Below, one piece after another: positions 12,987-63,035 of a stretch of DNA of 64,000 nucleotides. The notes below the pieces were generated by a model. It was given only the letters and a program-made list of their open reading frames with translations. It had not been told where the DNA came from and ran no database searches. The DNA comes from Acidimicrobiia bacterium (GTDB lineage: Bacteria; Actinomycetota; Acidimicrobiia; Acidimicrobiales; Aldehydirespiratoraceae): contig JAJEJB010000031.1 in NCBI GenBank assembly GCA_022828135.1, positions 29,813 through 93,812 on the forward strand, in the 5' to 3' direction. Every line of letters starts with the position of its first letter. The first letter of the stretch is position 1. The position numbers were made by a program, and so were the translations under genes.

Positions 12987-13016
12987 GTGAGCGCAGCGAA
13001 CAAGAGCGGGAGACAC
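12987..13016 (+). repeat. Dispersed repeat, copy A (right half only)
   Basis: GTGAGCGCAGCGAACAAGAGCGGGAGACAC equals the 3' part of the 47-nt core plus the GAGACAC tail. The left half of the core is missing. Confidence 0.8.
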
Positions 13017-13075
13017 CCCCTAGCAACGCGACGGGCTTGCGCCTACCCGCGCACGCTCTAGGCAGCGCGTCGCCT

Positions 13076-15655
13076 CTAGTGGTAGGAGATTGCCTCCAGC
13101 AGATCGACGCGGTTGGCCCGGCGAGCCGGCGCCAGCGAGGCCAGGAGGCCGGCCACCGCCGCCACGACCAGGTACACGACCACGGTGCCCCCCGGCAGAG
13201 CCACGGTGGAGATGATGCTGCTGGGGAGGGACCCGGCCGCGATCGACCCCGCCACCAACCCGGTCACGACACCTATGACCCCGCCGAAGACGGCCACGAT
13301 GACCCCCTCCAGCAGGATGGCGGCCCGGATCTGCCGCTTGCCCATGCCGACGGCCCGCAGCAGCCCGATCTCGCGGGTCCGCTCGAACACTGACAGGGCC
13401 ATGGTGTTGGAGAAGCCCATCACCGCGATCAGCAGCGCCATGATCAGGAACACGTTGATCACGACCAGCAGGTTGTCGACCTGAGTGGACCGGCTGGCGC
13501 GGTACTCGGCCTGGTCGCGCACTACGACCTGCGGGTACTCGGCGAGACCCGCCTCCAGCGCGGCCCGGGCGTCCTCGCTGCTGACTCCCGCCGCGGTGAC
13601 CGCGGTGACCAGGCTGTCCTGGTCGCCGACGACGTAGAGGTCCCAGTCATCGAGGTCGATGACCCAGGAGCCCAACACCGAGCCCTCGGTGTGGAGGGCC
13701 ACCACCTCGAAGGCGACTTCCTCGTGGCCCGAGATCTCCAGCCGCACTTCGTCGCCCACGGCGAGACCGAGCTCCTCGGCGGCGTCGACATGCACCATCA
13801 CGTCACCGGGACCGGCTCCGGCCACGCTGCCGGAGGTGACGTTCGGCTCCACATGGCTCGAGAAGGAGGCGAGGTTGGCAGCCGAGAGCACGTGCTGGGT
13901 GCCGTCGGCCGTGCGCACGCCGTTCGGCCGGAACCGAAATACCTCCACCGATTCCAGTTCGAGCACCTGGGCGATCTCCGATCCGGCTTCCGAACTGAAG
14001 GCGAGCTGCTGGTTGTCGCAGCGCCCGGCGCACAGCATCCAGTCCGCCCGGACCGAGTCCTCCAGCTGGCCGTTGAGGGTCTCCTTGAAGGACGTGCCCA
14101 GCACGGTGACCAGCGACACCATGGCCAGCCCGATCATCAACGCCGAGGCGGTGGTGGCCGTGCGGCGGGGGTTGCGAACCGCGTTGAGTCGGGCCAGACG
14201 CCCGTTCAGGCGGAACAGCCGGGCTGCCGGCCATCCCAGCACCTGCGACATCGGACCGGCGACCGCGGGGCTGCAGATGTTGACGCCCACCAGCACCCCT
14301 AGGGCGCCGAAGCCGAGCAGCAGGACGAGCGCCGATATGGACAGATCCGACAGCAGACCCACGACCAGAAGCACCAGCCCGATCGCGCCGACCACCGACC
14401 CGATGATGATCGACCTGCGCTGGCTGTAGGGGTCGATGTTGGCGTCGTCGGCCAGCGCCACCATAGGCGTCACCCGGCGGGCCCGCATCGCCGGCAACAG
14501 GGAGATGATCACCGTCAGGCCGACGCCGAGCGCCAGCGCGGCGATGATCGGGCCTGCGCCGACCGTGAGATCCGCCGAGGGAAGATTCGAACCTGCTGCA
14601 GCCAGGATGCCGCTCATGGCCTCGGACACCAGCAGACCGAGACCGAGACCCACCACGGCGGCCAACGCACCCATGACCAAGGCCTCGAACGCCACCGTCG
14701 AAGCCACCTGCCGCCGGTCGGCTCCGAGCACCCGCAGCAATCCGAACTCCTTGATGCGCTGGCCTGTGACCAGGGTGAAGGTGTTGTAGGTGATGAACGC
14801 CGAGATGACCAGCACGATGACGGCGAAGGCCAGCAGCGCGTTGCGGAACACGTCCAGGAGGTCGCTCATCTCCTGATCGCGGGCTTCGACCTGCTCCTGC
14901 TGCGAGAGGACCACGTAGGCCGGGCCCAGCTCGCGCTCGATGGACGCGGTCACCTCTTCGAGCGAGGCCCCTGGCGACAGGCTCACATCGATGAGGTCGT
15001 ACCCGCCGCCGTCGTGCAGGACGTCACGAGCGGTGTCCATGTCCCAGGCGACCAGCTGGAAGGGGGACTGGAAGTCGGGCTCCATGAAGTAGAAGACGCC
15101 AACCAGCTCGAAGGAATGCGTTCCGGTGGGGGTGGCGACCTTGTAGCGCTCACCGATCCGGAAGCCGAAGGTGGCCGCAGTGTGTTGGTCCATGGCGAAC
15201 TCGTCCGGCCCGGCCGGCCTGCGGCTGACCCCGTCGTCGACAGGAAAGATCCTGCCCAGCGACTCGTCCTCCGGCCAGCCCATTCCGCCCTGTTGGGCGA
15301 GCTCGGGATCGGTCGCCTCGCCGTCGGCGCCGATGGCAACGACGTTGAACTCCGACACCGCGCCGGCGGTCTTCTCCACACCGTCAATCGCTTCCAGCCG
15401 ATCCTTCAACGAGGGGTCGAGCAACGGCAGGTCCTGCCACTGGTCGACGTTGCCCAGGGTCGACTGCGAGCGGACCGACAGGTCGACCTGGTCGTAGAGA
15501 TCGCCGGCCAGGTCGCTGAGGGCGGTTCGCAACCCGTCGGTGTTGATCAGCACGCCGACGGTGAGGGCCACCCCGGCCACCACCGCCAGCGTGGTGAGCG
15601 TGAACCGGATCCGTGTGGCCGCAATGTTGCGGATGCTGTAGCGCAGCAGGGTCAT
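13076..15655 (-). CDS. ABC transporter permease, MacB/FtsX type with two FtsX domains
   Basis: 859 aa, MTLLRYSIRNIAATRIRFTLTTLAVVAGVAL..., with a duplicated 4-TMS FtsX module and large extracytoplasmic loops. It lies downstream of a MacB-type ATPase. Confidence 0.85.
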   Translation of the reverse strand: MTLLRYSIRNIAATRIRFTLTTLAVVAGVALTVGVLINTDGLRTALSDLAGDLYDQVDLSVRSQSTLGNVDQWQDLPLLDPSLKDRLEAIDGVEKTAGAVSEFNVVAIGADGEATDPELAQQGGMGWPEDESLGRIFPVDDGVSRRPAGPDEFAMDQHTAATFGFRIGERYKVATPTGTHSFELVGVFYFMEPDFQSPFQLVAWDMDTARDVLHDGGGYDLIDVSLSPGASLEEVTASIERELGPAYVVLSQQEQVEARDQEMSDLLDVFRNALLAFAVIVLVISAFITYNTFTLVTGQRIKEFGLLRVLGADRRQVASTVAFEALVMGALAAVVGLGLGLLVSEAMSGILAAAGSNLPSADLTVGAGPIIAALALGVGLTVIISLLPAMRARRVTPMVALADDANIDPYSQRRSIIIGSVVGAIGLVLLVVGLLSDLSISALVLLLGFGALGVLVGVNICSPAVAGPMSQVLGWPAARLFRLNGRLARLNAVRNPRRTATTASALMIGLAMVSLVTVLGTSFKETLNGQLEDSVRADWMLCAGRCDNQQLAFSSEAGSEIAQVLELESVEVFRFRPNGVRTADGTQHVLSAANLASFSSHVEPNVTSGSVAGAGPGDVMVHVDAAEELGLAVGDEVRLEISGHEEVAFEVVALHTEGSVLGSWVIDLDDWDLYVVGDQDSLVTAVTAAGVSSEDARAALEAGLAEYPQVVVRDQAEYRASRSTQVDNLLVVINVFLIMALLIAVMGFSNTMALSVFERTREIGLLRAVGMGKRQIRAAILLEGVIVAVFGGVIGVVTGLVAGSIAAGSLPSSIISTVALPGGTVVVYLVVAAVAGLLASLAPARRANRVDLLEAISYH

Positions 15656-15665
15656 CGGTCCGCTA

Positions 15666-15743
15666 CGGCCTCTGCGTTTTTCCGCTCTTGTTCGCTGCGC
15701 TCACGGGCCGCTCGGGCCACGGCCTCGCAAGCTCGGCCTCTGG
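15666..15743 (-). repeat. Dispersed repeat, copy B (full core, between ABC ATPase stop and permease start)
   Basis: The reverse complement of 15682-15728 is GCGAGGCCGTGGCCCGAGCGGCCCGTGAGCGCAGCGAACAAGAGCGG. It is bracketed by a perfect 9-bp direct repeat, CGGCCTCTG, at 15666-15674 and 15734-15742. Confidence 0.85.
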
Positions 15744-15744
15744 T

Positions 15745-16575
15745 TCACTCTTCCAGCTCTTCCATGAACTTGAGGACCTCGTCCATGGTGGCGCCCTTGG
15801 GAAGGCCACGGATGAACTGGCCCACCTGCAGGATCTTCATGTGGTCGATTATCAGGTCGGCGCCGGGGTTGATCAGCTCGCCCTGGAGGATGCCGTCGGA
15901 CAGGAACACGGCCCGGTCGGCGAAGGAGGCCGCCCGGGCGTCGTGGGTGACCATGGCGATGGTCTGGCCCAGATCGTCCACCGCCTGGCGCATGAACCGC
16001 AGGACGTCGGTGCCGGACCGGGAGTCGAGATTGCCGGTGGGCTCATCGGCGAAGATGACCTCCGGCTTGCTGGCCAGCGCCCTGGCTACCGCCACCCTCT
16101 GCTGCTGGCCGCCGGAAAGCTCGTTGGGCCGGTGGCCCAAACGGTCGCCCAGACCCACGGTGGCGATCACGCCGTCCACCCACTCCTGGTCGGGCTGGCG
16201 CCGGGCCAGCTCGATGGGGAGGGTGATGTTCTCGATGGCGGTCAGGGTGGGCACCAGGTTGAACGCCTGGAAGATGAACCCCACCCGTTCGCGGCGCAGC
16301 CGGGTCAACTCCCTGTCGGTCAGGGTGCTCAGGTCGGTGTCGCCGATGAAGGCCCGGCCTTCGGTGAGGTCGTCGAGCGCGGCCATGCACTGCATGAGCG
16401 TCGACTTGCCCGATCCCGACGGGCCCATGATCGCGGTGAACTGCCCCTTCTCGAAGGTGATGTTCACGCCGCTGAGGGCCCGGACCTCTATCTCACCCGA
16501 ACCGTAGACCTTGACGGCGTCCTCGGCGCGGGCCACGGCAACCGTCCCGGAGGCCTCGACCGCAGCGTTGCTCAC
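15745..16575 (-). CDS. ABC transporter ATP-binding protein (MacB/LolD-like)
   Basis: GPSGSGKST (Walker A), LSGGQQQRVAVARAL (signature) and VIFADEPTGNLD (Walker B). It has a ~40-aa C-terminal extension. Confidence 0.9.
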   Translation of the reverse strand: MSNAAVEASGTVAVARAEDAVKVYGSGEIEVRALSGVNITFEKGQFTAIMGPSGSGKSTLMQCMAALDDLTEGRAFIGDTDLSTLTDRELTRLRRERVGFIFQAFNLVPTLTAIENITLPIELARRQPDQEWVDGVIATVGLGDRLGHRPNELSGGQQQRVAVARALASKPEVIFADEPTGNLDSRSGTDVLRFMRQAVDDLGQTIAMVTHDARAASFADRAVFLSDGILQGELINPGADLIIDHMKILQVGQFIRGLPKGATMDEVLKFMEELEE

Positions 16576-16732
16576 TCTGGCACCTCGCTCAGCCCTTTCG
16601 CCGCTCGCCCTCTAGAAGCTAGCACCAAGTGCGAACGCCCTCTCGTCGACCGAAAGCGCCAAGTCCATGCTTCGCGGACCCTACCGCCCCCCAGCGGGGG
16701 CAGCGCCCGACTCCAGACGGGTAGCGTGAGGT

Positions 16733-17182
16733 ATGGACAACACCGCGCACGACCTGGATGCGGCTGCGGCGACGGATGCGATCCGGCTGCTGCTGGACAC
16801 GGCCGCGATCCGCCGGCTGCTGGCCGCCTGCTGCCATACCCTCGACGACGGCCACTTCGACGAGTGGGTCAAGCTGTACACCGACGACTGCAAGTTCGCC
16901 GTGATGGGGAGCCGCGCTCAGGGGCGTGAAGAGATGCGGGCCATGATCGAGCCCTTCCAGACGACCGAGCTCAGGGGCAAGCACATGATCAGCGAGCCCC
17001 GGATCAACGTGCACGGCGACGAGGCCAACGCCACTACGGACTTCGCCTTCGTGGCCAAGGACAACAAGATCCTGCAGACCGGCCGCTACCACGACGTTCT
17101 TCGCCGGGAGCCCGACGGCTGGCTGGTGGCCGGACGGGAGATCGTGTTCACCGGCGACGAGCCGATCGGCCTCGACGACTGA
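16733..17182 (+). CDS. SnoaL-like/NTF2-fold protein
   Basis: 149 aa, ...IRRLLAACCHTLDDGHFDEWVKLYTDDCKF...GRYHDVLRREPDGWLVAGREI..., the SnoaL_4-like pattern. Confidence 0.75.
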   Translation: MDNTAHDLDAAAATDAIRLLLDTAAIRRLLAACCHTLDDGHFDEWVKLYTDDCKFAVMGSRAQGREEMRAMIEPFQTTELRGKHMISEPRINVHGDEANATTDFAFVAKDNKILQTGRYHDVLRREPDGWLVAGREIVFTGDEPIGLDD

Positions 17183-17197
17183 GGGCGCGGACGGACC

Positions 17198-17410
17198 GTG
17201 GCCCTCGACAAGCTGCTGTCGGGAGCGCCGGCCCGCGACGACCCGGTCGTGGACGCCGGCGGCCGGTTCTCGTCCGCTGATGTGGAGGGCCGGGTCAGGA
17301 CGGTCGCGGCCGCGCTCAAGAGCCTGGCCGCTGCGCTCGACCTCATCGCGTCGGGCGCCCTGCCTGATCAGGCGACTAGCCGACGACCGCAGGACGCGGC
17401 CGGTCAGTGA
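17198..17410 (+). pseudogene. Possible N-terminal remnant of an AMP-dependent acyl-CoA synthetase
   Basis: VALDKLLSGAPARDDPVVDAGGRFSSADVEGRVRTVAAALKSL resembles the first ~45 aa of FadD-type ligases, then loses similarity. It overlaps the 3' end of the peptidase gene. Confidence 0.3.
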
Positions 17411-17892
17411 ACCGGCACGAGCCCGCCGGTGGCGGCCGCCCAACTCACCGCGGCCGCGGTGCCGGCCAGGAGGTAGGGGCCGAGGGGCCGGCTGGCACTC
17501 CGGCCATGTCGAACCAGGACGACCAGCGCCTCTGGCACGGCCAGCACGAACCCCGCCGCGAGGCCCCACAGCGCTACCTCCCAGCCCCACCACCCGCACA
17601 GCAGGCCGTTCAGCACGCTGAGGCGGACATCACCGAAGCCCATCCCGGGCGGGTGGATGAAGTGGACCGCAGCCATGATCGCGCCGCACGTTGCGGCCCC
17701 CAGCACTGCGCCGATGACACCATCCGGCTCGGCCTCGATCAGCGAAGCCACCGCGTAGAGCAGCCACACGATTCCCGCGGTGGGCCATATCAGCCGCGTC
17801 GGCAGCCGGCCGGTTCGAAGGTCGGTCACGGCCAGACGCACACCGGCGCCCAGCCAGCACAGGGCCGCAGCAACGACAAGGACCGCCGGCAC
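17404..17892 (-). CDS. A24-family prepilin/type IV leader peptidase-like membrane protein (orphan)
   Basis: 162 aa and polytopic, with LAVTDLRTGRLP and GMGFGDVRL containing the two catalytic-Asp contexts of A24 peptidases (CpaA/TadV-like size). Confidence 0.75.
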   Translation of the reverse strand: MPAVLVVAAALCWLGAGVRLAVTDLRTGRLPTRLIWPTAGIVWLLYAVASLIEAEPDGVIGAVLGAATCGAIMAAVHFIHPPGMGFGDVRLSVLNGLLCGWWGWEVALWGLAAGFVLAVPEALVVLVRHGRSASRPLGPYLLAGTAAAVSWAAATGGLVPVH

Positions 17893-17904
17893 CGAGTGGT
17901 CCCG

Positions 17905-18277
17905 CTACGGGTCGGGCCGGATGCCGGCTCCCGATTCCACCCGGTCCCGCAACACAGCCGCCAGGCGGGCCCGGTGGTGGCGGGCGTCACCGAACGACAC
18001 GCTGTCGAGATGGGCCCGCTTCAGGTACAGGTACACGTCGGCCTCCCAGGTGAACCCGATGCCGCCGTGGACCTGCAGGGCCGACTCGGCGACCCGCACT
18101 GCCGCGTCGCTGCACCAGATCTTGGCCACCGCCGCGGTCTCGGCCGTCTCACGGCCGCCACTCCCGAGCGCCGTTCTCGCAGGCCCGGCGCACCGTTGCG
18201 ATGTCGCAACGGTCGTACAGCAACGCCCCGGCTGCATCCCGCAGAGCCACCTGGTCGGCCGACAGATCGAAGTCCAC
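17905..18277 (-). pseudogene. Acyl-CoA dehydrogenase remnant with internal deletion and frameshift
   Basis: An N-terminal piece, V(M)DFDLSADQVALRDAAGALLYDRCDIATVRRACENGA (from 18277), is joined out of frame to a C-terminal piece, ...AAVAKIWCSDAAVRVAESALQVHGGIGFTWEADVYLYLKRAHLDSVSFGDARHHRARLA (stop 17905). The ~250-aa middle is absent. Confidence 0.65.
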
Positions 18278-18321
18278 CGCCCCCAGTCTACGAAATCCCT
18301 GTAGTAGGAGACGCATAGGGT

Positions 18322-18363
18322 GCCATGGGCGACGCCGCCCCGTTGTGGCGCGACGCCCATGGC
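18322..18363. repeat. Perfect 10-bp inverted repeat at the junction of two opposed ACAD remnants
   Basis: GCCATGGGCG (18322-18331) and CGCCCATGGC (18354-18363) are separated by 22 nt. Confidence 0.7.
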
Positions 18364-18498
18364 AATCCGGCTAGGGGTCGCTGGCAGCGGTCGTGGCTCT
18401 ACTACCGGGCCGCCTCAATCTTCGCGGGCACCAACGAGATCCAGCGCAACGTCATCGGCGAGCGGACCCTGGGCCTCCCCCGCCAGAGGCCGAGCTGA
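18325..18498 (+). pseudogene. C-terminal remnant (57 codons) of a second acyl-CoA dehydrogenase
   Basis: [57 protein letters not shown]. The [21 protein letters not shown] block is the conserved ACAD C-terminus. Confidence 0.6.
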
Positions 18499-18553
18499 GC
18501 GAGGCCGTGGCCCGAGCGGCCCGTGAGCGCAGCGAACAAGAGCGGGAGTACAC
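18483..18553 (+). repeat. Dispersed repeat, copy C (full core)
   Basis: CCAGAGGCCGAGCTGA, then GCGAGGCCGTGGCCCGAGCGGCCCGTGAGCGCAGCGAACAAGAGCGG (18499-18545), then GAGTACAC. The left flank overlaps the last codons and stop of the ACAD remnant. Confidence 0.85.
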
Positions 18554-18592
18554 AGCTGACCCGGCGCGCCCCTGCTGCGTACACTGACCTGC

Positions 18593-18895
18593 ATGTCGGA
18601 GTTCGCAACGATCGTCTACGAGGTCACCGACCACGGCGCCACCATCACCATGGACCGGCCCCAGGTGGCCAACGCCCAGGACACCCGGATGATCGACGAG
18701 CTCGACGCCGAGCTCGACCTCGCCGACGATGACGACGAGGTGCGGGTGGTGGTCCTGGCCGCCGACGGCAAGCACTTCTCGGCCGGCCACTGGATGCACA
18801 ACACCGCCACCGCCCTGGGCGCGCTGGAGCGACGCATGCAGAAGGGCTCCATGAAGGAAGTCTTCGCCGAGCACCGCGACCCGCAGACCCAGTGA
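18593..18895 (+). pseudogene. Truncated enoyl-CoA hydratase (N-terminal 100 aa only)
   Basis: MSEFATIVYEVTDHGATITMDRPQVANAQD...VVVLAADGKHFSAGH matches the first third of crotonases (compare the gene at 6087), then diverges and stops. The stop overlaps the CoA-transferase start (GTGA). Confidence 0.65.
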
Positions 18896-20094
18896 GGCAG
18901 CCCCTGGCCGGGATCAGGGTGCTCGATCTGGGCACCCGGATCGCGGGGCCGTTCTGCGCCGGAGTCCTGGGGGAGCAGGGCGCCGAGGTCATCAAGGTCG
19001 AGGACCCCGGCCGGGGTGATCCGACCCGCATCAACGGTCCCTTCACCACTGACGACGAGGGCAACCACTACTCGCTGTACTGGTCGGTGGAGGGCCGGGG
19101 ACGTAAGTCGGTGACCATCAACCTGCGCGACCGGCAGGGCCAGGACCTGTTCCGGCGCCTGGCCTCGGTGTGCGACGTGGTGTGCGAGAACTTTCGTCCC
19201 GGCACCCTGGAACGCTGGAACATCGACCCGTCCCGGCTCGATCCCCGCCTGGTCACCGCCCGCATCAGCCTGTTCGGCCAGGACGGCCCCAAGTCGCTGT
19301 ACAACGGCTTCGACCACAACGCCGTCGCGTTCGCCGGGCTGACGCACCTCACCGGGCATGCCGACGGACCCCCGGCACGGCCGGGCCTTCCCATCTCGGA
19401 CTACCTGACCGCCCTGTTCGCTGCCCAGGCCGTGACCAGCCTGCTGTACGAGCGCGACGCCAGGGGTACCGGCACCGGCGGTGTGGTCGACGCCTACCTG
19501 TACGGCTCGGTGCTGCGGATCATGGAATGGACGATCGCGGCCTACGACCGGCTGGGCGAGGTGCGCCAGCGCACCGGCAACCGATCCGAGCGCGCCGCGC
19601 CCCTCGACAACTACCTGAGCCGGGACGGCCGGTACGTGTGCATCGTGGCCGTGCGCCAGCCGGTGTTCGAACGCCTGTGCGAGGCGATGGGCCGGCCCGA
19701 GTTGTCGACCGACGAGCGCTTCCGATCCTCAGGGACGCGCGGCCGCAACCGGGACGAGGTCAACCAGATTGTGGCCACATGGGCGGCCGGACTGGACGCG
19801 GCCACCATCGAGGAGTGCTGCCTGCGCCACAGCGTGCCGGTCGGCATCGTCTACGACGTGGCCGACATGGCGGCGGACGAGCATGTGCGGGTCCGGGGCG
19901 ACCTGTGCACCGTCGACGACCCCGTCATCGGCCCGGTGCGCCAGCAGGCCCCCTTCCCCCGCTTCGATGACGGCTCGCCTCCGGTCCCAGCCGGCGCTCC
20001 CCGGCTGGGTGAGCACACCGACGAGGTGCTCACAAGCCTGCTGGGACTCTCAGGAGCCGAGATCGCCTCCCTGCGAGACCGCAACGTGGTCTGA
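18892..20094 (+). CDS. Family III CoA-transferase (CaiB/BaiF type), paralog 1
   Basis: 400 aa, MRQPLAGIRVLDLGTRIAGPFCAGVLGEQGAEVIKVE...ENFRPGTLERWNI... Confidence 0.9.
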   Translation: MRQPLAGIRVLDLGTRIAGPFCAGVLGEQGAEVIKVEDPGRGDPTRINGPFTTDDEGNHYSLYWSVEGRGRKSVTINLRDRQGQDLFRRLASVCDVVCENFRPGTLERWNIDPSRLDPRLVTARISLFGQDGPKSLYNGFDHNAVAFAGLTHLTGHADGPPARPGLPISDYLTALFAAQAVTSLLYERDARGTGTGGVVDAYLYGSVLRIMEWTIAAYDRLGEVRQRTGNRSERAAPLDNYLSRDGRYVCIVAVRQPVFERLCEAMGRPELSTDERFRSSGTRGRNRDEVNQIVATWAAGLDAATIEECCLRHSVPVGIVYDVADMAADEHVRVRGDLCTVDDPVIGPVRQQAPFPRFDDGSPPVPAGAPRLGEHTDEVLTSLLGLSGAEIASLRDRNVV

Positions 20095-20096
20095 GC

Positions 20097-21860: not shown

Positions 21861-21931
21861 CCGATGGCTCTTCTCAGCCCAAACGCTGGGCTCCGGCGTG
21901 TAGCTTCCCTTGCCGTGGATCGGCGGCCGCA

Positions 21932-23134: not shown

Positions 23135-23175
23135 CCCCCGGCACTCCTTCAGCCGGGACCGGCGGCCCGGGTTGC

Positions 23176-24351: not shown

Positions 24352-24440
24352 GGCGTGTCCCTTTCTCGCGTGCCCCGGCAGCCTACGCGCTTCGTTTGCC
24401 GACAATTCGCCCGGCCGGCGGGTCCTGTCGTCGAGGCCGT

Positions 24441-37293: not shown

Positions 37294-38223
37294 TCAGGTG
37301 AGGATCCCGGCCCGCTCTCTCGGGTGCAAGGGATGGTCGAACGGCCGCACACCGAAGCGGCGGGCCAGCTCGAAATAGCCGCGGTAGAGGCCCGCCCCGG
37401 CGGCAGCCTCGTCGTAGCCGCCGGTGGCTTCGGCGTGAGCCGACAACCGGTACCAGGCCACCCCCGGGTCGGCGTGGTGGACATGGTGGAGGTTGTTGTA
37501 GAGATACAGCATGCTGAAGAAGCGTCCCGACCGGATCACCGCTGAGCGGGTGGCGCCCTCCACCCAGCGGTGCTCGCAATAGGACCTCATCAGGGTCAGG
37601 GAGTTCCCCAGATACGTGGCCCCGAGCACGTACTGCCACCAGGGGACCCCCATGACCACCACCACGAAGACGACCAGTGCGGCCGCGGCAGCCACATGCG
37701 CCGACCACCAGCGGGCCAGCTCCCGGTCGCCCCGGTAGATCTCGCGGGCCTCATGTACCAGCACCCCCGCGATGTATCGGGGCGGTCCCAGCACCAGGCG
37801 GCCGAGCAGGGTGTGGTGGGCCAGCAGGAAGGCCCGGCCCAGGCGGCCCTTGGACTCCCACTGCTCGGCGCTCACATAGAAGCTCTCGCTGTCATCGATC
37901 GGGTCGGTCAGTTCGGGGCAGTCGTGATGGGCCCAGTGGGAGCGCCGGTACACCAGGTAGGGCAGGTGCAGCGACATGGGCAGCGAGCCCAGCAGAGCAT
38001 TCAGCCGCTGGCTTCTGAACGGGTGGCCGTGGATGGTCTCATGCTGGAGCGAGCCGTGCCATGCCGCGATCAGACCCAGTGCGAGGACCGTCAAGAGCCA
38101 GGGAGTAACGCCGTGGAGGGCCAGCACGGCCAGCCACAGGCCGTGCACCGCGACTGCAACCGCGACCGTGCGCCACTCCACGGTCGGCCCAGAGGCCGAG
38201 CGAACAGGCGCCTCGGCAGCCAT
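37294..38223 (-). CDS. Membrane fatty-acid desaturase family protein
   Basis: Three His boxes are present: HETIH, HWAHH and HHVHH. Confidence 0.85.
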   Translation of the reverse strand: MAAEAPVRSASGPTVEWRTVAVAVAVHGLWLAVLALHGVTPWLLTVLALGLIAAWHGSLQHETIHGHPFRSQRLNALLGSLPMSLHLPYLVYRRSHWAHHDCPELTDPIDDSESFYVSAEQWESKGRLGRAFLLAHHTLLGRLVLGPPRYIAGVLVHEAREIYRGDRELARWWSAHVAAAAALVVFVVVVMGVPWWQYVLGATYLGNSLTLMRSYCEHRWVEGATRSAVIRSGRFFSMLYLYNNLHHVHHADPGVAWYRLSAHAEATGGYDEAAAGAGLYRGYFELARRFGVRPFDHPLHPRERAGILT

Positions 38224-39245: not shown

Positions 39246-39258
39246 CCAGAGGCCGAGC
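39246..39258 (+). repeat. Possible degenerate/solo left end of the dispersed repeat
   Basis: TGA-CCAGAGGCCGAGC-GGCCGCG directly follows the regulator stop. The same 13-mer is the left flank of copies B, C and E. It is too short to be sure. Confidence 0.3.
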
Positions 39259-39283
39259 GGCCGCGCCGGTAGGATTCGCAGTC

Positions 39284-49804: not shown

Positions 49805-49816
49805 AGATCGACTTTC

Positions 49817-52936: not shown

Positions 52937-52964
52937 GTCCGTCTCCTGCCTGGGGTCTCGCGGC

Positions 52965-54056: not shown

Positions 54057-54080
54057 ATGTGGCCATGTTTGTAGGTTTGA

Positions 54081-55358: not shown

Positions 55359-55363
55359 AATCC

Positions 55364-56410: not shown

Positions 56411-57429
56411 CGGGGCCTCCTTCGGGCCGAGCGTTCGAACGCCGGTGGCGCCCAGTAGGTGTCGGCCTCGTTGATGTTCACGCCCGGAGCCACCACCGAG
56501 TCGATGGCGTCGAGGGTGTCCTCGTCGAGGCGCAGATCCCCCACTGCCAGCAGTTCGGTGAGTTGGGCCTCGGTGCGGGGCCCTATGAGCACCGCCGTCA
56601 CCGCCGGATGCTCGAGGATCCAAGCCAGGGCCATGTGGGTCATGGACACGCCCGCGGCGGCTGCAATCGGACCCAATCTCTCGACGGCATCGAACTTGGC
56701 CTCGTTGCCGCCGTCGAAGTGGTCGGGATTGGTGTCTCCCCGGCTCCCCAGAGGGGCCGGCTCGGCCCTGGTGTACTTGCCGGTGAGCCATCCCCCCGAC
56801 AGCGGACTCCACGTGATGACGCCCATCCCGTAGCGGGCGCACACGGCGAGGACGTCGCTCTCGATCCCGCGGCACATGATCGAGTAGGGCGGCTGCTCGC
56901 AGTGCGGGCCGATGGCCCCCGAGCGCTGCGCCGCCCAGTGGGCCTCGACGATCTCGGAGGCCGGGAACGTCGACGTGCCCCAGGCTCTGATCTTGCCGGC
57001 CCGCACGAGGTCGCTCATCGCCTCGACGGTCTCGGCGATGTCGGTGTGCGGGTCGGGTCGGTGCACCTGGTACAGGTCGATGTAGTCGGTGCCGAGCCTG
57101 CGCAGGCTGTCCTCCACCGCTCGCATCATCCACCGGCGGGAGTTGCCCTGCCGGTTGGGGTCGTCGTGGTCGCCCACCGGGTTCTGGAACTTTGTGGCCA
57201 GCACCACGTCGTCTCGGCGGCCCTTCAACGCCGGACCGATGATCTCCTCGGTGGCCCCGTCTCCGTAGGTGTCGGCCGTGTCGACCAGGTTCAGCCCGGC
57301 ATCAAGGGCGCCGCCGACGATGCGGCGGCAGGCCTCGACATCGGTGTTGCCCCACGGACCCAGCACCATGGTGCCCAGCGCGAGAGGGTTCACCCTGACG
57401 CCGCTGCGTCCGATCGTGCGGAACTCCAT
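56407..57429 (-). CDS. Aldo/keto reductase
   Basis: MEFRTIGRSGVRVNPLALGTM...VDTADTYGDG...DLYQVHRPD... Its stop overlaps the next start (ATGA). Confidence 0.9.
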   Translation of the reverse strand: MEFRTIGRSGVRVNPLALGTMVLGPWGNTDVEACRRIVGGALDAGLNLVDTADTYGDGATEEIIGPALKGRRDDVVLATKFQNPVGDHDDPNRQGNSRRWMMRAVEDSLRRLGTDYIDLYQVHRPDPHTDIAETVEAMSDLVRAGKIRAWGTSTFPASEIVEAHWAAQRSGAIGPHCEQPPYSIMCRGIESDVLAVCARYGMGVITWSPLSGGWLTGKYTRAEPAPLGSRGDTNPDHFDGGNEAKFDAVERLGPIAAAAGVSMTHMALAWILEHPAVTAVLIGPRTEAQLTELLAVGDLRLDEDTLDAIDSVVAPGVNINEADTYWAPPAFERSARRRPR

Positions 57430-57502
57430 GGCCGCCGGTGCCGTTGCGTCTCCGGGCTGGCTCAGCGCCTGCCCGCTACGAGTGCTGTCGTCAAGCGTTG
57501 CG

Positions 57503-57871
57503 TCAGCCGTGACCCTCGTCGGGGGTGGCGCCCCACTCGATGATCTGCAGCATGTTGCCGTCGGGATCGGCCACGGTGCCGATGAGCCCGAAGGGCATCT
57601 GCTCGACCTCGCGCACCCACGACGCGCCGTGGGAGTTGAGATGGGTCTCCAGCCCGCGGCAGTCGCCCACGTCGAGGTTGAGGATGATCCGGTGCCCGTT
57701 CTCGTTGGGTCCCGACACCTCGCTGTGCTCCTCGATGAAGAGCTGGACCCCGCCGAACACGAACGCGCCCATCTCGTTCTCATCGGGTGAGAAACAGGCC
57801 CGGTACCAGTCCTTCATGGCGTCGACCTGCGACGATCCCACGAGAATGCTGCCCAGATTTGGTGCTGCCAT
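57503..57871 (-). CDS. VOC (glyoxalase-fold) protein
   Basis: AGGAGG lies upstream of the ATG at 57871. ...GLIGTVADPDGNMLQIIEW. Confidence 0.75.
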   Translation of the reverse strand: MAAPNLGSILVGSSQVDAMKDWYRACFSPDENEMGAFVFGGVQLFIEEHSEVSGPNENGHRIILNLDVGDCRGLETHLNSHGASWVREVEQMPFGLIGTVADPDGNMLQIIEWGATPDEGHG

Positions 57872-57997
57872 TGGATTCCTCCTGAACTCAACGAACTGTT
57901 GGCCGGACGGTACGCCCAGCCGGCGAACCGGACCAAATCCGCCCAGCGAGGTTCCAGCTAGGAGCCGCAAGTAAGGTCGCCGTATCAGGGGGTTGCC

Positions 57998-58489
57998 ATG
58001 ACCGAGACTGCTTCGCCTGCAGCCGCGGCACCTGCGGGCCAGCCGCCGCCTTCGCTGCTCACCCACATCGCGCTGCCCGTGCGCAGCCTCGACGACACCC
58101 TGGCGTTCTACGAGAAGTTCACCACCCTGGTGAAGATCTCGGAGCGCCACGACGACGAGACCAAGATGCGAACCGCGTGGCTGGCCAACGAGCGCGACAT
58201 CACCACCCCGGGAGCGGCCCGCTTCGTGATCGTGCTCATGGAGGGCGCCCTGCCCAAGCAGATCACCGGCGACATCGTCGAGGAGTACGGCTTCCTCACA
58301 TCCATAGCCCACCTCGGCATCTCGCTGGACACCCGGGACGAGGTGGACGAGGTCGCCCGCCTGGCCGCCGAGGACGGCTGCCTGGTGCTCGGGCCCATGT
58401 ACCGCAACCCCGATGTGGGCTACATCTGCCTGATCAAGGATCCCGACGGCAACAACGTCGAGTTCTCGGTGGAACAGGTCCTGGGCTGA
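57998..58489 (+). CDS. VOC (glyoxalase-fold) protein, type b paralog
   Basis: ...LTHIALPVRSLDDTLAFY...IAHLGISL...VGYICLIKDPDGNNVEFS. Confidence 0.75.
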   Translation: MTETASPAAAAPAGQPPPSLLTHIALPVRSLDDTLAFYEKFTTLVKISERHDDETKMRTAWLANERDITTPGAARFVIVLMEGALPKQITGDIVEEYGFLTSIAHLGISLDTRDEVDEVARLAAEDGCLVLGPMYRNPDVGYICLIKDPDGNNVEFSVEQVLG

Positions 58490-58505
58490 CCTGCCCCGAG
58501 GTTGA

Positions 58506-58898
58506 TCAGGCGTTCTTCTCGGAGGCTGATCCGGGCACGTAGGTGCCCTTGTTGCGCCACAGCACCACCTCGGCGCCCCACGGGTCGCGGAAGGCGGCGT
58601 GGCGGGCGTCGAACTCCTCCCAGTAGTACTCGTCCCACATCTTGGTGGCGCCCATCTCAATGGCAGCCGCGAGCTTGGCCGGCGGGTCGTCGACCATGAC
58701 GTATATGCGGGGCACCGGTCCGCTCACCGGGGTGGTCTCCAGGTGGATGCCGAGGTTGGGCTTGACGCCCGGCAGCACCTCGTGGAACTCACCGGCGGGA
58801 CGGCGCTTGTACTTCCAGTCGAACAGCTTCTCGTAGAACTGTGAGGTGGCCTCGGGGTCGGGGGTGGGCAGGTCCACGAAGATGAGAGGGTTAACCAT
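58506..58898 (-). CDS. VOC (glyoxalase-fold) protein, type a paralog
   Basis: MVNPLIFVDLPTPDPEATSQFYEKLFDWK...FRDPWGAEVVLW. Confidence 0.75.
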   Translation of the reverse strand: MVNPLIFVDLPTPDPEATSQFYEKLFDWKYKRRPAGEFHEVLPGVKPNLGIHLETTPVSGPVPRIYVMVDDPPAKLAAAIEMGATKMWDEYYWEEFDARHAAFRDPWGAEVVLWRNKGTYVPGSASEKNA

Positions 58899-58938
58899 GC
58901 CGGTCGCTCCTTAATGACGGTCGATGCCTCAGGCCACG

Positions 58939-60264
58939 CTAGACCGGACCGTCCAGCCGCGAGACAGCGGCGTCGCCCAAGGCCACGAATCGCTCGTAGC
59001 CGGACCGGTAGGCCGGATCAGGGGACGGCTCGATGCGGGTCATGGCGGCCAGCGGCCAGGAGACCATGCTGGCCGCCCCGACCCCCTCCCACCAGTCCAG
59101 CGCCGCGCCCGCGGCCAGCGCGCAACCGTGAGCCGACAGCTGCTCGGGCCTCTCGGGCATGTCGACTGCCACCTCAAGCACGGACGCCTTGATCGAGCAC
59201 CACAGGCGGCTGAGCGCGGGCGAGCCGCCGCAGCACATCACATCCATCTCGACTCCGGCCGCCCGGAGGCCCTCGTGTACATGCCGCAGGCCGTAACCGG
59301 CCGCCTCCAGCACGGCCCGGGCGATCTGGGCCACGCCGGAGTCGAACGTCAAGCCGTGGATCTCGCCCCGCAGGCGGGACTCCCACCGGGGCGCTCGCTC
59401 ACCGTCGTGATAGGGCAACACCAGGAGGCCGCCCGCGCCCGGATCCACCCTCCCCGCCAGCGTCAGCAGCTCCTCGATGGATCGGCCCGACGTGGCCGAC
59501 CACCACTCCAGCAGCTGCCCGTGCCCGTTGGTGGGACCGCCGACCACCTCCACCCCGGCCACCGGGCTGAAGTACCCGGGAATATCTGCGGGGCGCTGCG
59601 CCGCGTCCACTGCCACGCCCAGCCCCCCGGTGCGCCCTCCGGGGTCATGGCCCCGGCGGGGCTTGCCGAGACCACCCGCCCAGAAGCTCATGTACGCGTC
59701 GTTGGACGCGCTCACCAGAGGCGTGCCGGCGCGCAGGCCCAGCGAGCCGTCGCAAAGCCCGATGACAGTCCCCACCTCGACCTGCTCGCCGTATCCCGCG
59801 ATGGTCTCCTCGCCGGGCCACAGTCCCTGGATGTTGCCCGCGCCGAGGCATCGCAGCGCCCAGTCCCAGATCTGCGCGCCGGCCAGCGAGCGGCCCGCCT
59901 CGTGGCTGAGGAATTCGAGTTGGGCGAGGTGCTGCCCGGTCCGGTCCAAGCCGATGCCCGCCGGATGCCGGCAGGTCGCGGCCCACCCGACCGGGTCCCT
60001 GCCCCCGTCATCGGTCAGCGGGACGGTGGTGGGGCTCTGCCCGCCCACGCCCACGGCTGCGATCTCCAGGCCGGCCTCGTCCACCCTGGCCAGGAGCCGG
60101 CCCAGGCCGTCGAGCCACGCAGCAGGGTCCGCCCGCCCCGCCGGCCAGGAGCCGGCGCCCTCGAAAGGCTCGTACATCCACAGCTTCACACTCCCGCTGC
60201 GAGCCAGTGCCACCGCGCGGGCTCCGCCCGTCCCGAGGTCGACGCCGACGACGACCGAACTCAC
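58939..60264 (-). CDS. FGGY-family carbohydrate kinase
   Basis: V(M)SSVVVGVDLGTGGARAVAL...CCGGSPALSRLWCSIKASVL... GGAGGA lies upstream of the GTG at 60264. Confidence 0.8.
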   Translation of the reverse strand: MSSVVVGVDLGTGGARAVALARSGSVKLWMYEPFEGAGSWPAGRADPAAWLDGLGRLLARVDEAGLEIAAVGVGGQSPTTVPLTDDGGRDPVGWAATCRHPAGIGLDRTGQHLAQLEFLSHEAGRSLAGAQIWDWALRCLGAGNIQGLWPGEETIAGYGEQVEVGTVIGLCDGSLGLRAGTPLVSASNDAYMSFWAGGLGKPRRGHDPGGRTGGLGVAVDAAQRPADIPGYFSPVAGVEVVGGPTNGHGQLLEWWSATSGRSIEELLTLAGRVDPGAGGLLVLPYHDGERAPRWESRLRGEIHGLTFDSGVAQIARAVLEAAGYGLRHVHEGLRAAGVEMDVMCCGGSPALSRLWCSIKASVLEVAVDMPERPEQLSAHGCALAAGAALDWWEGVGAASMVSWPLAAMTRIEPSPDPAYRSGYERFVALGDAAVSRLDGPV

Positions 60265-60299
60265 CGCGGCATGTCCTCCATCTCGGCCAGGGGGTCGCG

Positions 60300-60357
60300 G
60301 TGTCTCCCGCTCTTGTTCTCTGCGCTCACGGGCCGCTCAGGCCACGGCCTCGCTGAG
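60300..60357 (-). repeat. Dispersed repeat, copy D (full core, between ADH stop and kinase start)
   Basis: The reverse complement of 60307-60353 is GCGAGGCCGTGGCCtGAGCGGCCCGTGAGCGCAGaGAACAAGAGCGG (45/47 to copies B and C), followed by GAGACAC. Confidence 0.85.
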
Positions 60358-60403
60358 TGCCCCGCGAGTCCCTCACGAATTGCCGCCCAACCGCTCGGCC
60401 TCT

Positions 60404-61420
60404 TCATCCCACCATGACCCGGTAGACGGGCTGCGACGCGGCCAGCGTCAAGGCGTCGGCCACCTCGTCCAGGCGGTAGCGGGCGGTCACCAGACGGTCG
60501 AGGTCCGCGGCCAGCGCGCCGGACTCCAGCAGGCCCGCGGCCGTCCGCCAGTCCTCCGGCTCCTGGCTGAAGACTCCGATGATCGACAGCTCGTGGTGGT
60601 GAATGCGGTCCGCACCGACTGACGCCATCACATCTTTGGGGAAGGCCCCGTACAGGACCACCGCCCCCGCGTCGTCGCACAGGTCCAAGGCCAGCTCGAC
60701 CGCGCCGGGTGTACCGGCGGTCACGAACACCGCATCGTGCCGGCCCTGCCACCGGACCAGATCGTCCGGCCCGGCCACCCAGTCGGCTCCGGCCCCGGTC
60801 GCTTCCGTGCGTCGCTGCTCGTCGATATCGACCAGACCGACACGGGATGCGCCCCAGGCCCGGCAGAGGGCCAGGTGCAGGCGGCCCATGTAGCCCGCGC
60901 CGATCACGGCTACCCGGTCACCGGCCCGGAAGCCGCTCAGCCGTACCGAGTGCACCACGCAGGCCAGCGGCTCGCCCATGGCGGCCTGCTCGACCGGGAT
61001 CTCGCCGACCCGGTAGGTCTGGGCCGCAGCCACGCTGACCACTTCGGCCAGGCCCGCGCCCATCGAGATGGTGCCGTCGCTCAGGGTTCCGCCCTGGGGT
61101 CGCTTGCACAGGGCGCTGCGGCCTCGCCGGCACATATGGCAGGTGCCGCAGCGGGTGAGAAGGTCCATGGTGACCAGATCGCCGAGTTGTGGAGTTCCGG
61201 CCAGGGACGCCACGGCCTCGCCGACCTCGATCACCCGGCCGGCGGCTTCGTGGCCAGGGGCGACGGGATAGACCGGCTTGGTCCCGTCGTAGAGGCGTCG
61301 CTCCATGGTGCACAGACCGCAGGCCCCCACCGACACGAGCACGTCGTCGGGACCGGCTGCGGGCCGAGGCTCCTCGCGGAGTTCGACCGCTCCCGGCCCG
61401 GTGACGACTGCAACCTGCAT
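60404..61420 (-). CDS. Zn-dependent alcohol/polyol dehydrogenase (MDR, threonine/sorbitol dehydrogenase-like)
   Basis: The ATG at 61420 starts MQVAVVTGPGAVEL...CGLCTMERR...GHEAAG...CGTCHMCRRGRSALC...VIGAGYMG... Confidence 0.85.
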   Translation of the reverse strand: MQVAVVTGPGAVELREEPRPAAGPDDVLVSVGACGLCTMERRLYDGTKPVYPVAPGHEAAGRVIEVGEAVASLAGTPQLGDLVTMDLLTRCGTCHMCRRGRSALCKRPQGGTLSDGTISMGAGLAEVVSVAAAQTYRVGEIPVEQAAMGEPLACVVHSVRLSGFRAGDRVAVIGAGYMGRLHLALCRAWGASRVGLVDIDEQRRTEATGAGADWVAGPDDLVRWQGRHDAVFVTAGTPGAVELALDLCDDAGAVVLYGAFPKDVMASVGADRIHHHELSIIGVFSQEPEDWRTAAGLLESGALAADLDRLVTARYRLDEVADALTLAASQPVYRVMVG

Positions 61421-61448
61421 GATGCTCCTATTCGGCTCGACTAAAAGG

Positions 61449-62849
61449 TTAGGGACACGCGATGTGGGGCCATCGCTGCGGTATCTCCAGACCGGCTCTC
61501 GCCAGCAGCGAACTCTGCGCCTCAGCGGCCTCGGCACGCAATGCGGCGAGGTCGACGGTGACGCAAGCGCCGTCGCGCACGACCGGCCGGCCGGCGACCA
61601 CTACATCGCGCACCGAGCGCCCATCGGTGCCCCACACGAGCTGCAGGACCGTCTCGCCCCGCGGATTCCAGGCCACTGAAGTGGTGTCGTGCACCACGAT
61701 GTCGGCCTGCTTGCCGGTCTCCAGGCTGCCGATCCGGTCGTCCATGCCGACCGCGGCCGCGCCCTCGATAGTGGCCAACTCGAACGCGGTGTGAGCTCCG
61801 AAGCGTTCGGGATCGACACGGGTGTCACGAGCCAGACCCGCGGTCAGAGCGGCCACCCTCAGGATGTCCGATGTGTCGCCGGCGTTGGAGGCGTCGCAGC
61901 CCAGAGCCACCCGCCCACCACGCTCCACGATCTCGGCGTGGCGGCCTTGGCCGGCCACGCCCTGGCCCAGGCGCAGATAGGCCCAGGGGCAGTAGGCGAT
62001 GGCCGTCGACGTGGCCAGCACCAACTCCACCTCGGAGTCGTCCAACCACACACCGTGGGCCACCAGCAGATGGGGTCCGAGCACGCCCAGCGCGTCGAGG
62101 TGGGCCAACGGTCGGCGCCCTGTACGGGCCAGGTACCGCTCGGGGTCCGAGGACGTGGGCGACATGTGCATGGTGAGTCCGGTGCCCCGATCCCGGGCCA
62201 GATCCGCAGCCCCGGCCAGCAGTTCGTCGGAGGCAAGATCATGACCGACCAGCGTCACCCACCCCTCGACGAGTCCCCCGGATCCCAGGGCGTCGACCAC
62301 CTCTCGCTGGCGTTCGAGCACTTCGGTCGCCGGCGCGGTGAAGGGACCCTCTTCGATGTCCCATCCCCAGGTGCCCATCGTGCCGCGGATGCCGGCTCGG
62401 CGCATCCCGGCCGCAGCCCGGTGCGGGTTGGCCACCGTGCCCGCTTCCACCACCGTGGTCACGCCGTTGGTGAGGTTCTCCACCGAGGACAGCACTGCCG
62501 AGAGTTCGTCGTCGTCTCCGGTGTGGGCCCCATGGGCGGGCACCGACCATTCGAAGATCGAGGCGCCCGGGGGCAGCAGGTCGGGGATGCAGCTGCGGAT
62601 GAGGGGATCACCCGTCAGGTGCTGGTGGGAGTTGACCATTCCCGGCGTCACCACACACCCGGTGGCATCGATCACCTCAGCCTCGGGATAGCGGCCGGCG
62701 AGCTCGGTGCTGGAACCGACCGCGGCGATCACATCGCCGGCGACCGCGACCGCACCCCCGACCAGCACCTCCCGAGCCGTGTTCATGGTGACGACGTCGC
62801 CGCCGGACACCAGCAGCGTCGCGCCGGCCGGCGCGGCCTCGGCCCCCAT
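61449..62849 (-). CDS. Amidohydrolase (TRZ/ATZ / SsnA-like family)
   Basis: ...VTPGMVNSHQHLTGDP (HxH)...VAHGV...LGCDASN... Confidence 0.85.
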   Translation of the reverse strand: MGAEAAPAGATLLVSGGDVVTMNTAREVLVGGAVAVAGDVIAAVGSSTELAGRYPEAEVIDATGCVVTPGMVNSHQHLTGDPLIRSCIPDLLPPGASIFEWSVPAHGAHTGDDDELSAVLSSVENLTNGVTTVVEAGTVANPHRAAAGMRRAGIRGTMGTWGWDIEEGPFTAPATEVLERQREVVDALGSGGLVEGWVTLVGHDLASDELLAGAADLARDRGTGLTMHMSPTSSDPERYLARTGRRPLAHLDALGVLGPHLLVAHGVWLDDSEVELVLATSTAIAYCPWAYLRLGQGVAGQGRHAEIVERGGRVALGCDASNAGDTSDILRVAALTAGLARDTRVDPERFGAHTAFELATIEGAAAVGMDDRIGSLETGKQADIVVHDTTSVAWNPRGETVLQLVWGTDGRSVRDVVVAGRPVVRDGACVTVDLAALRAEAAEAQSSLLARAGLEIPQRWPHIACP

Positions 62850-62896
62850 CGCGACCGAGCATAGGCGGCGAGGCTCGCGCGAGAATCAGCGGGTGA

Positions 62897-63035
62897 CCAG
62901 AGGCCGAGCCAACCGGCGGGCGCAGGCCCATACGGGCGAGGCCCCAGGGCCCAGCGGCCCGCGAGCGCAGCGAACAAGAGCGGCAGGCACGACCCGAGCG
63001 GCCCGTGAGCGAAGCGAACAAGAGCGGGAGTGAGG
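62897..63035 (+). repeat. Dispersed repeat, locus E (about 1.6 tandem, diverged copies)
   Basis: CCAGAGGCCGAGC (62897-62909), a 26-nt insert, then the diverged core GCGAGGCCCCAGGGCCCAGCGGCCCGCGAGCGCAGCGAACAAGAGCGG (62936-62983). A second partial core, GACCCGAGCGGCCCGTGAGCGAAGCGAACAAGAGCGGGAG, lies at 62991-63030. Confidence 0.85.

Follow-up and report, generated by a model that had tools for sequence, protein, structure and literature searches.

The stretch of DNA analyzed here, referred to as the window, comprises 64,000 nucleotides from an Acidimicrobiia bacterium of the Aldehydirespiratoraceae (GenBank assembly GCA_022828135.1, contig JAJEJB010000031.1, positions 29,813 to 93,812), and contains a dispersed repeat with a 47-nt core. 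An original prediction, made from the letters of the window, had placed this core at five or more loci and described it as a non-palindromic repeat that may act at the RNA level. We examined the window copies together with their relatives in other genomes, and find that the core is the center of a longer, modular, non-coding element, of which the window holds decayed copies.

Copies of the repeat in the window

The core occurs in exact form at 15682-15728 on the minus strand and at 18499-18545 on the plus strand, and with two mismatches at 60307-60353 on the minus strand, as first described. The 47-mer found no match in 100 dinucleotide-preserving shuffles of the window, where the G+C content is 67–72% throughout, and its 21-nt right half, GAGCGCAGCGAACAAGAGCGG, has six sites at one mismatch or fewer (12989+, 15682-, 18525+, 60307-, 62963+ and 63007+). 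The recurrence at five loci is real, with a chance expectation of about zero, and nhmmer searches with profiles of the family return the same five window loci and no others. What had been taken for a shared left flank, AGAGGCCGAGC, does recur, at six sites against 0.15 expected, including one that had been missed (38191+) and one in copy D (60393-); in fact, it provides GGCCGAGC, the pairing partner of the first eight nucleotides of the core, GCGAGGCC. The motif GAGCG, counted four times originally, is present three times in the 47-mer, the fourth occurring only in the linker of copy C.

Copy A (12987..13061, plus strand) is a right half only, and lies antisense to both neighboring genes. The last 23 nt of the core (GTGAGCGCAGCGAACAAGAGCGG) are followed by GAGACAC and a spacer, then by the right arm GCGCCTACCCGCGCACGCTCT, and CTAG forms the terminus; in the nhmmer search it extends over 12985-13063, corresponding to profile positions 75-152, and its right arm matches the right end of the family. 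The copy adjoins an open reading frame (ORF; 12070-13026) that holds only the C-terminal half of a P450. Abutting its right end on the minus strand is an 18-mer (13062..13079, CTAGAGGCGACGCGCTGC) that by eye resembles a left end, a resemblance only, and that overlaps the TAG stop of a MacB/FtsX permease gene (13076-15655, minus strand).

Copy B (15682..15743, minus strand) is a short form in sense orientation, in which a TT loop links the left end CCAGAGGCCGAGC and the 47-nt core, and which lacks a right arm. Its hairpin, P1, is formed by pairing of 15738-15731 with 15728-15721, and the 89-nt gap that this copy fills separates the stop codon of an ABC ATPase gene (15745-15747) from the start of the permease gene (15655). 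Copy C (18483..18553, plus strand) is likewise a short form in sense orientation without a right arm, where the left end CCAGAGGCCGAGC is followed by the core (18499-18545) and by GAGTACAC. The left end of copy C supplies the last four codons (QRPS) of a 60-codon C-terminal fragment of an acyl-CoA dehydrogenase gene, the TGA stop of which (18496-18498) is the P1 loop of the copy, and an N-terminal fragment of an enoyl-CoA hydratase gene follows downstream. In this cluster of fragments, the dehydrogenase tail occupies 18319-18498 and the hydratase N-terminus 18593-18895 (100 codons); the latter runs directly into a complete CoA-transferase III gene, and no coding signal was recognized on the plus strand at ~17200-18320.

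Copy D (60299..60403, minus strand, sense) has a long-hairpin form, referred to as t2, and again no right arm: a left end AGAGGCCGAGCGG, a variable hairpin of ~38 nt, the core with its two mismatches (60353-60307), and GAGACACC. It starts directly behind the TGA of a Zn-alcohol dehydrogenase gene, with an FGGY kinase gene downstream. Copy E (62897..63035, plus strand) has a left part of a second type, t1 (CCAGAGGCCGAGC...CATACGGGCGAGGCC), followed by the core and no right arm; the 3' part of its core is duplicated in tandem (62936-62983 and 62991-63027), which Tandem Repeats Finder reports as an array at 62953-63027. Copy E occupies the divergent promoter region between an amidohydrolase gene (start 62849, minus strand) and an FmdA/AmdA gene (plus strand), so that the stop codon thought to precede it belongs to no gene. 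Two left ends stand alone. The one at 39246..39273 (CCAGAGGCCGAGCGG...GGTAGG, plus strand) lies without a core in a 38-nt intergenic gap, directly behind a TGA, where a 13-mer following a stop codon had been noted correctly. The other, at 38189..38211 (CCAGAGGCCGAGCGAACAGGCGC, plus strand), lies inside the initial ~11 codons called for a fatty-acid desaturase gene (37294-38223, minus strand), in antisense to it; these codons (MAAEAPVRSASG) may be derived from the element, or translation may truly start at a more internal site.

Since no window copy has both arms, all five are truncated relics, and the number of complete copies in the window is zero. As described originally, they are intergenic or lie at the edges of gene fragments, copies A and C adjoining such fragments; with these two cases to go by, the proximity to broken genes is consistent with events of recombination or deletion at the dispersed copies. 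Regarding the statement that four of the five loci read in the sense direction, copies B, C and D are clearly sense, whereas copy E is sense to its downstream gene only, and copy A is antisense.

Anatomy, hosts and conservation of the family

An exact-match scan with GAGCGMAGMGAACAAGAGCGG, covering one genome per prokaryotic species, identified at least 120 loci with the 21-mer in at least 48 species-level genomes, as counted by isolate name; among the matches listed, all hosts are metagenome-assembled genomes (MAGs) of Acidimicrobiia, and comprise Candidatus (Ca.) Aldehydirespirator, Ca. Poriferisodalis, and unnamed Acidimicrobiales/Acidimicrobiaceae bins. Complete chromosomes carrying the element include OZ242033.1, OY759762.1, OZ241894.1, OZ244866.1 and OZ244832.1. 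Based on their names, we take these bins and genera to be associated with sponges. Aldehydirespirator is mentioned in one paper on sponge Actinobacteriota. The analyses below use 8-kb pieces around the matches, ~1 Mb of locus sequence in total, in which profiles of the family detect 179 copies.

Alignment of the flanks of all copies places the core in the center of a longer, non-coding unit, and full copies measure 150–160 bp. The order of parts in a full copy is: left end AGAGGCCGAGCGGATAGG (given as AGAGGCCGAGCGGATAGGCGAG in the complete element), variable hairpin, invariant core, and right arm CCTATCCGCGC..CTCT, where the right arm (CTCACCTATCCGCGC..CTCT) is the inverted complement of the left arm. 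The hairpin P1 (GGCCGAGC/GCGAGGCC) connects the left end with the beginning of the core, and a variable spacer separates the core from the right arm. The consensus of the commonest class reads (Y)TA|[A]GAGGCCGAGCGGATAGGCGAGCGAATCCGGCCCATACGGGCGAGGCCGTGGCCCGAGCGGCCCGTGAGCGCAGCGAACAAGAGCGGGAATGACACCGCTGCGACGCGACGGGCTCTCACCTATCCGCGCNCGCTCT|TA(R). By the spacing between left end and 21-mer, three classes are distinguished, of ~42 nt (short), 65–66 nt (t1) and 75–77 nt (t2), and the hairpin of the short form is GGCCGAG-CTTG-CGAGGCC. The core is built from two sub-modules, each expandable in tandem: a 27-nt internal unit, GAGCGCAGCGAACAAGAGCGGGAGATG, is repeated 2.9 and 5 times, and a 20–21-nt internal unit, GGCCCGAGCGGCCC, 3 and 4.9 times.

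The arms are inverted (left GCGGATAGGCGAG, right CTCGCCTATCCGC) and form a 13-bp helix. With this helix specified by hand, 83% of cells are paired in 24 full t1 copies, compared with 28–52% when the partner is slid by 1–3 columns. Changes on both sides are present in seven of the 13 arm pairs (for instance, G-C in 11 and A-U in 6, or A-U in 16 and G-C in 4), and none of 500 shuffles reached the covariation score of the arms. Pairing in P1 is equally well preserved, at 92% of cells in 20 short-form copies against 23–43% when slid, and one position appears as U-A (9), C-G (8) and G-C (1). A tandem G·A/A·G in the middle of the P1 helix is conserved and the 4-nt loop varies freely; in the variant GGCCCCGC/GCGGGGCC, the two G·A pairs are replaced by C-G pairs.

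The full copy at L053 is predicted to fold into a multibranched stem-loop closed by the arms, with a free energy of -80.4 kcal/mol and z values of -4.9 in sense and -3.6 in antisense. The window copies, being truncated, are no more stable in folding than shuffles (z between -1.4 and +1.2), which explains why no palindrome was seen originally. The description as non-palindromic does not apply to complete copies elsewhere, which carry the inverted-repeat arms and a terminal hairpin, and near-absence of self-complementarity holds for the 47-mer and the truncated window copies but not for the complete element. RNAalifold yielded a weak consensus for the 24 full copies, with no long-range helix and a covariation term of -0.57, and a right-hand hairpin with a ACCGCGAG loop that appeared promising by eye was rejected, as it is only 59% paired. 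In the arms, G·T (57) is not commoner than A·C (74), and there is thus no sign of pairing selected on one transcribed strand; the RNA-level function that had been suggested is no more than a possibility.

To evaluate conservation of the core, we counted mismatches in the 26 nt adjoining the search pattern, which had not been used for ascertainment. These 26 nt have at most one mismatch in 70% of 145 copies, compared with ~40–80% column identity in arms and spacers. Copy B and its orthologue at L017 are identical at 62 of 62 positions, encompassing the left end, P1 and the core, while the coding flanks are 92% identical and a 31-nt indel is located just 3' of the core; the closest relative compared with the window, OZ220743.1, has ~92% identity. 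The exact sequence of the window is also contained in a Logan assembly of run SRR16351694. Similarly, the cores at L037 and L100 are identical at 47 of 47 positions between flanks of 90% and 74% identity. At 8% divergence, the probability that 62 neutral sites stay unchanged is ~0.006 (0.92^62), and the module is therefore maintained by selection, or else by conversion among its copies. Had whole elements been transferred recently, the arms would not be so divergent. The core is conserved beyond neutrality and near-invariant across genera.

Besides the three size classes, core-less palindromic derivatives (L046 and L001) and arm-only remnants are present. The derivative at L046 (6191-6262) is a near-perfect palindrome of ~70 bp (AGAGGTCGAGCGACCAGGCG…CGCCTGGTCGCTCGACCTCT) that is devoid of a core and retains the CCGGTTCATGCGGG loop of t1, which suggests that the arms-plus-loop unit and the core were possibly separate modules originally. 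At L082 (4440-4530, minus strand), a 13-nt unit, CAGAGGTCGAGCN, consisting of the left-end motif alone, is present as ~6 tandem repeats. A second conserved, A+T-richer motif of ~57 nt (…AAATCTG…TGACGGGTTTCTCTACA.ATTT.GGT…) lies directly 5' of right-half cores at L034 (4310-4390, minus strand) and L108 (400-480, minus strand), and the junction GGTGCACCAGT|GAGCGCAGCG is common to L034 and copy A of the window (12976-12990); this motif could represent a further small element, or else a promoter or leader whose recombination with the core takes place at a fixed position. Finally, a stretch GGTAGATTCGGCGG.CTATG…ATCACCGGCCACCGG follows just downstream of a copy at L037 (6440-6480), L100 (~890-930) and the orthologous L111, and is kept in these three genomes while the surrounding intergenic sequence diverges.

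Junctions, stop codons and orientation

For 55 copies with a sense gene upstream, the position of the stop codon peaks at -2/-3 relative to the element (TAG|AGG, TAA|GAGG); the stop lies within 10 nt of the element in ~30 of the 55, and in 17 the reading frame runs into it. Convergent downstream genes have their stop on the right terminus itself (CT|CTA|G, TC|TTA|G), with a cluster at +47 to +52, and in truncated copies the stop of the convergent gene is found 3 nt past the core.

The dinucleotide at the left junction is TA in 40 of 125 copies (32%; background 1.1%), and the tetranucleotide YTAR is present there in 32 of 116 (background 0.09% per nt). Twelve copies have YTAR at both ends, and in nine of these the tetranucleotide is identical (shuffle mean 4.2, p = 0.005). 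Direct repeats of at least 7 nt (7–13 nt), ending in the YTAR motif, flank 13% of copies compared with 4% of mismatched controls, and may represent longer duplications, or insertion beside older copies. Filled and empty orthologous sites are seen in five pairs of loci (L096/L011, L063/L079, L117/L007, L106/L078 and L023/L085), reflecting either gain or loss of the element.

Between co-directional neighbors, sense copies outnumber antisense copies by 35 to 15, or by 32 to 14 in the 46 independent insertions that remain after collapsing orthologues (p = 0.011). The element is thus moderately biased toward the sense direction, rather than almost always in it as five loci had suggested, and further copies are situated between divergent (11) and convergent (10) genes. 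Neither local GC skew nor the positions on five complete chromosomes reveal a clear replication-strand rule.

Nature and origin of the element

In bacteria, MITEs (which stands for miniature inverted-repeat transposable elements) have been described as small (<200 bp) and non-coding, with inverted ends, terminal TA and an end-to-end stem-loop; they are intergenic, sometimes fused to ORFs, and sometimes contain an internal DNA motif (PMC2229807; Delihas 2008). The BOX element of Streptococcus pneumoniae, boxA-(boxB)n-boxC, has end modules that pair around a tandemly variable internal module (PMC3049150). The anatomy reported here fits the former description, and the modular BOX most closely. 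As in BOX, the element is composite, modular, non-coding and intergenic, its terminal modules pair, and its internal modules vary by tandem expansion and fold independently; it also agrees with BOX in being mostly shorter than 200 bp but variable, in the frequency of partial forms, and in a weak or uncertain link to a parental insertion sequence (IS) (PMC3049150). On the other hand, no sequence relation to BOX is expected, the present element is G+C-rich and resides in Acidimicrobiia, and here the internal module is the most conserved part instead of the ends, which abut stop codons and YTAR. Based on this likeness, we consider it probable that the repeat forms the conserved center of ~150–160 bp, GC-rich, modular (BOX-like) MITEs, which make up a new family specific to a sponge-associated lineage of Acidimicrobiia, and that the window copies are its decayed members. 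A small non-autonomous mobile element or recombination hot spot had been mentioned originally as an alternative, and it is this alternative that the evidence favors.

The family is previously undescribed, of a known element kind. A covariance-model search of the window and of element copies against Rfam gave no match for the repeat: there is no hit at the gathering score in the window and none on the elements of eight loci at E ≤ 1, and one full copy scores at most 14 bits, the level of chance. BLAST of phage and plasmid records and a scan of viral contigs were also without a match, and no description was found in the literature on the host genera or on repeats in Acidimicrobiia. An integron attC site was considered and rejected, since the alignments have no R''/R' (GTTRRRY) termini and the copies are dispersed over chromosomes instead of forming arrays.

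While the family with its anatomy, the compensated pairing of arms and P1, the junction motifs, the contact with stop codons, the filled and empty sites and the excess conservation are shown by the data, we infer the spread by a transposase, the kind of enzyme and any function of the core. A transposase acting in trans would recognize the inverted ends and insert the element at YTAR or TA. In a genome of 69% G+C, such sites would be almost confined to TAG and TAA stop codons, and the first bases of the element (A or G) would rebuild a TAG or TAA stop, so that insertions at gene ends survive; copies would for these reasons come to sit exactly on gene ends. Truncation, slippage of tandem units and recombination with other copies would subsequently degrade them, with the core and P1 being retained by selection or inter-copy conversion, perhaps as a protein-binding site or a transcript-level element.

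Among TA-targeting MITEs of the IS630/Tc1 type, Correia/NEMIS of Neisseria and RUP of pneumococcus share with the present family a length of ~100–155 bp, inverted ends, terminal TA (found here at the left junction of 32% of copies), an intergenic location, a long transcript stem-loop, and filled and empty sites, and Correia carries an internal motif that binds a protein, IHF (PMC2229807). They differ in that here CA equals TA at the junction, no matching IS is known, the composition is not A+T-rich, extra internal tandem modules are present, and the left and right ends are unequally conserved. The YTAR flanks, identical at both ends in nine of 12 testable copies, are reminiscent of the IS5 group, the members of which duplicate a 4-bp YTAR target; unlike for IS5-group elements, no transposase gene was found near copies in the locus sequence. 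In the ends of Escherichia coli IS5 (GGAAGGTGCGAATAAG/GGAAGGTGCGAACAAG), GCGAATA.G recurs from the left arm and GCGAACAAG from the core; with a score of 10, where shuffles have a 95th percentile of 9 and a maximum of 13, this match lies within chance and was rejected.

Several observations weigh against a MITE-like origin. At the left junction, CA (45 of 125 copies, 36%) is no rarer than TA, none of the five filled/empty pairs shows a textbook duplication, and some of the empty sites hold remnants; the target duplication could be TA, the 4-bp YTAR, or 7–13 bp. In the ~1 Mb of locus sequence, no paired orphan ends surround an ORF, and clustering of the proteins of the loci yields no recurrent neighboring family near copies. 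Conservation is strongest in the left end and the internal core rather than at both termini, which is atypical for a MITE constrained by transposase binding alone; short forms without the right arm recur and can be old (window copy B and L017), and the functional or mobile unit may be one without inverted ends. Moreover, the element is as G+C-rich as its 69% G+C genome, unlike the classical A+T-rich MITEs of bacteria, and a 2.3:1 sense bias is not predicted for insertion into a symmetric target. With its unequal ends, super-conserved interior, old short forms and sense bias, the family keeps two other explanations alive, one a transcript element and the other akin to repetitive extragenic palindromic (REP) sequences and the bacterial interspersed mosaic elements (BIMEs) that they form.

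In the former, the core and P1 would act in cis in 3' untranslated regions or between cistrons, as a stabilizer, a processing or termination signal, or a platform for proteins or ribosomes, and the arms and mobility would be secondary. This would agree with the 32:14 sense bias, with elements that begin right at stop codons, with the invariance of the core across genera and in orthologues, and with a non-canonical tandem G·A that is kept inside the co-varying P1; in addition, the full fold is predicted to leave the purine-rich 21-mer unpaired within a 20-nt loop, and by eye C-to-U changes in a small GCCC/GGGC hairpin (alignment A1) produce a sense-strand G·U. However, 30% of the informative copies are antisense and others lie between divergent genes, the arms have no excess of G·T over A·C, the right-hand hairpin is badly supported, the RNAalifold covariation term is almost nil, the window copies fold like shuffles, Rfam contains no match, and the invariant columns of the core cannot covary. 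We regard such an element as a rather unlikely explanation. A REP/BIME-like origin, which we judge to be quite improbable, would have the element spread by a single-stranded-DNA enzyme (a REP-associated tyrosine transposase (RAYT) or an HUH transposase of the IS200/IS605 type) that recognizes P1 with its G·A mismatches in place of the inverted ends. G+C-rich extragenic hairpins at gene ends, a mosaic build and compensatory stem changes are indeed features of REP/BIME systems with RAYT (PMC2817692), and here a conserved imperfect hairpin with compensatory changes is found at one end, short forms comprise P1 and the core without the right arm, the mosaic is expandable in tandem as in BIMEs, copies are extragenic and placed at gene ends, complementarity of the arms is maintained by compensation and not by sequence identity, and there is a strand bias. 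Yet the alignments contain no GTAG-type head and no inverted REP doublets, the element is much longer than the imperfect palindrome of 20–40 nt that makes up a REP and has a long, non-palindromic, invariant core, and neither a RAYT nor another Y1-transposase gene was seen beside copies, where the proteins of the loci were clustered and not all scanned. YTAR/TA flanks and flanking direct repeats are furthermore unexpected for HUH transposition, and a replication-strand rule is not apparent.

Frame analysis bears on two further explanations. Mycobacterial interspersed repetitive units (MIRUs) likewise have an actinobacterial host, are intergenic and tens of nucleotides long, occur in places in tandem (like variable-number tandem repeats), and are sense-biased. 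A MIRU-like intercistronic minisatellite would couple translation in operons by means of small ORFs that overlap the stop and start codons of neighbors (GTGA). At copy B, an overlapping GTGA stop/start relay and an in-frame open stretch do link two ABC-transporter genes, GTGA is invariant in the core, tandem arrays and a sense bias exist, and GAGCGCAGCGA may in part resemble a MIRU motif. But small ORFs that overlap stop and start codons, the defining trait of MIRUs, do not generally occur here: the commonest form (TAG|AGGCCGAGCGGATAG) closes the frame at once after the stop, ORFs that read through end at many offsets and in all frames, and the 44-nt duplication in copy E shifts the frame. Most copies are single and carry inverted arms, and some lie between convergent or divergent genes. 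MIRU-like translational coupling was rejected on these grounds and appears very improbable. We give practically no credence to the repeat as part of a protein-coding sequence under conservation, or as a product of chance or composition. The full element does contain one open frame, and ORFs are extended into it by gene callers at copy C, at copy E and at the N-terminus of the desaturase; however, all three codon positions are invariant, copies occur in either orientation to genes and in every frame, and zero matches are expected by chance. Shuffles, the 21-mer count and frame analysis refute both a coding origin and chance.

Within the MITE-like reading, the invariance of the core across genera is the one feature that ordinary MITE biology leaves unexplained. 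Tentatively, and as a possibility that we do not favor, the P1 and core module (47–62 nt) might be more than transposon cargo, namely a domesticated site used genome-wide by the sponge-symbiont Acidimicrobiia, where a protein specific to the lineage would bind at the 3' ends of mRNAs or in intercistronic regions, or else on DNA. If so, this would account for the identity across genera, survival of the module after decay of the arms, and the sense bias.

The repeat now has a name and an anatomy, and with a density of about one copy per 13–16 kb across a lineage of uncultivated sponge symbionts, extrapolation suggests a few hundred copies per genome. It illustrates how an element that seeks TA or YTAR in a very G+C-rich genome lands exactly on stop codons. 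Gene callers read through the repeat, as seen from the ORF ends at copies C and E and from the desaturase N-terminus, and since it marks rearrangement junctions and pseudogene edges, masking would improve the annotation of these MAGs. At L016, in a Ca. Aldehydirespirator MAG, a tRNA (5127-5201) adjoins a copy of the element; the same locus contains, at 2091-2190 on the plus strand, a match to the Rfam family PYLIS_3 (pyrrolysine insertion sequence, mttB), with 44.9 bits against a gathering score of 38.

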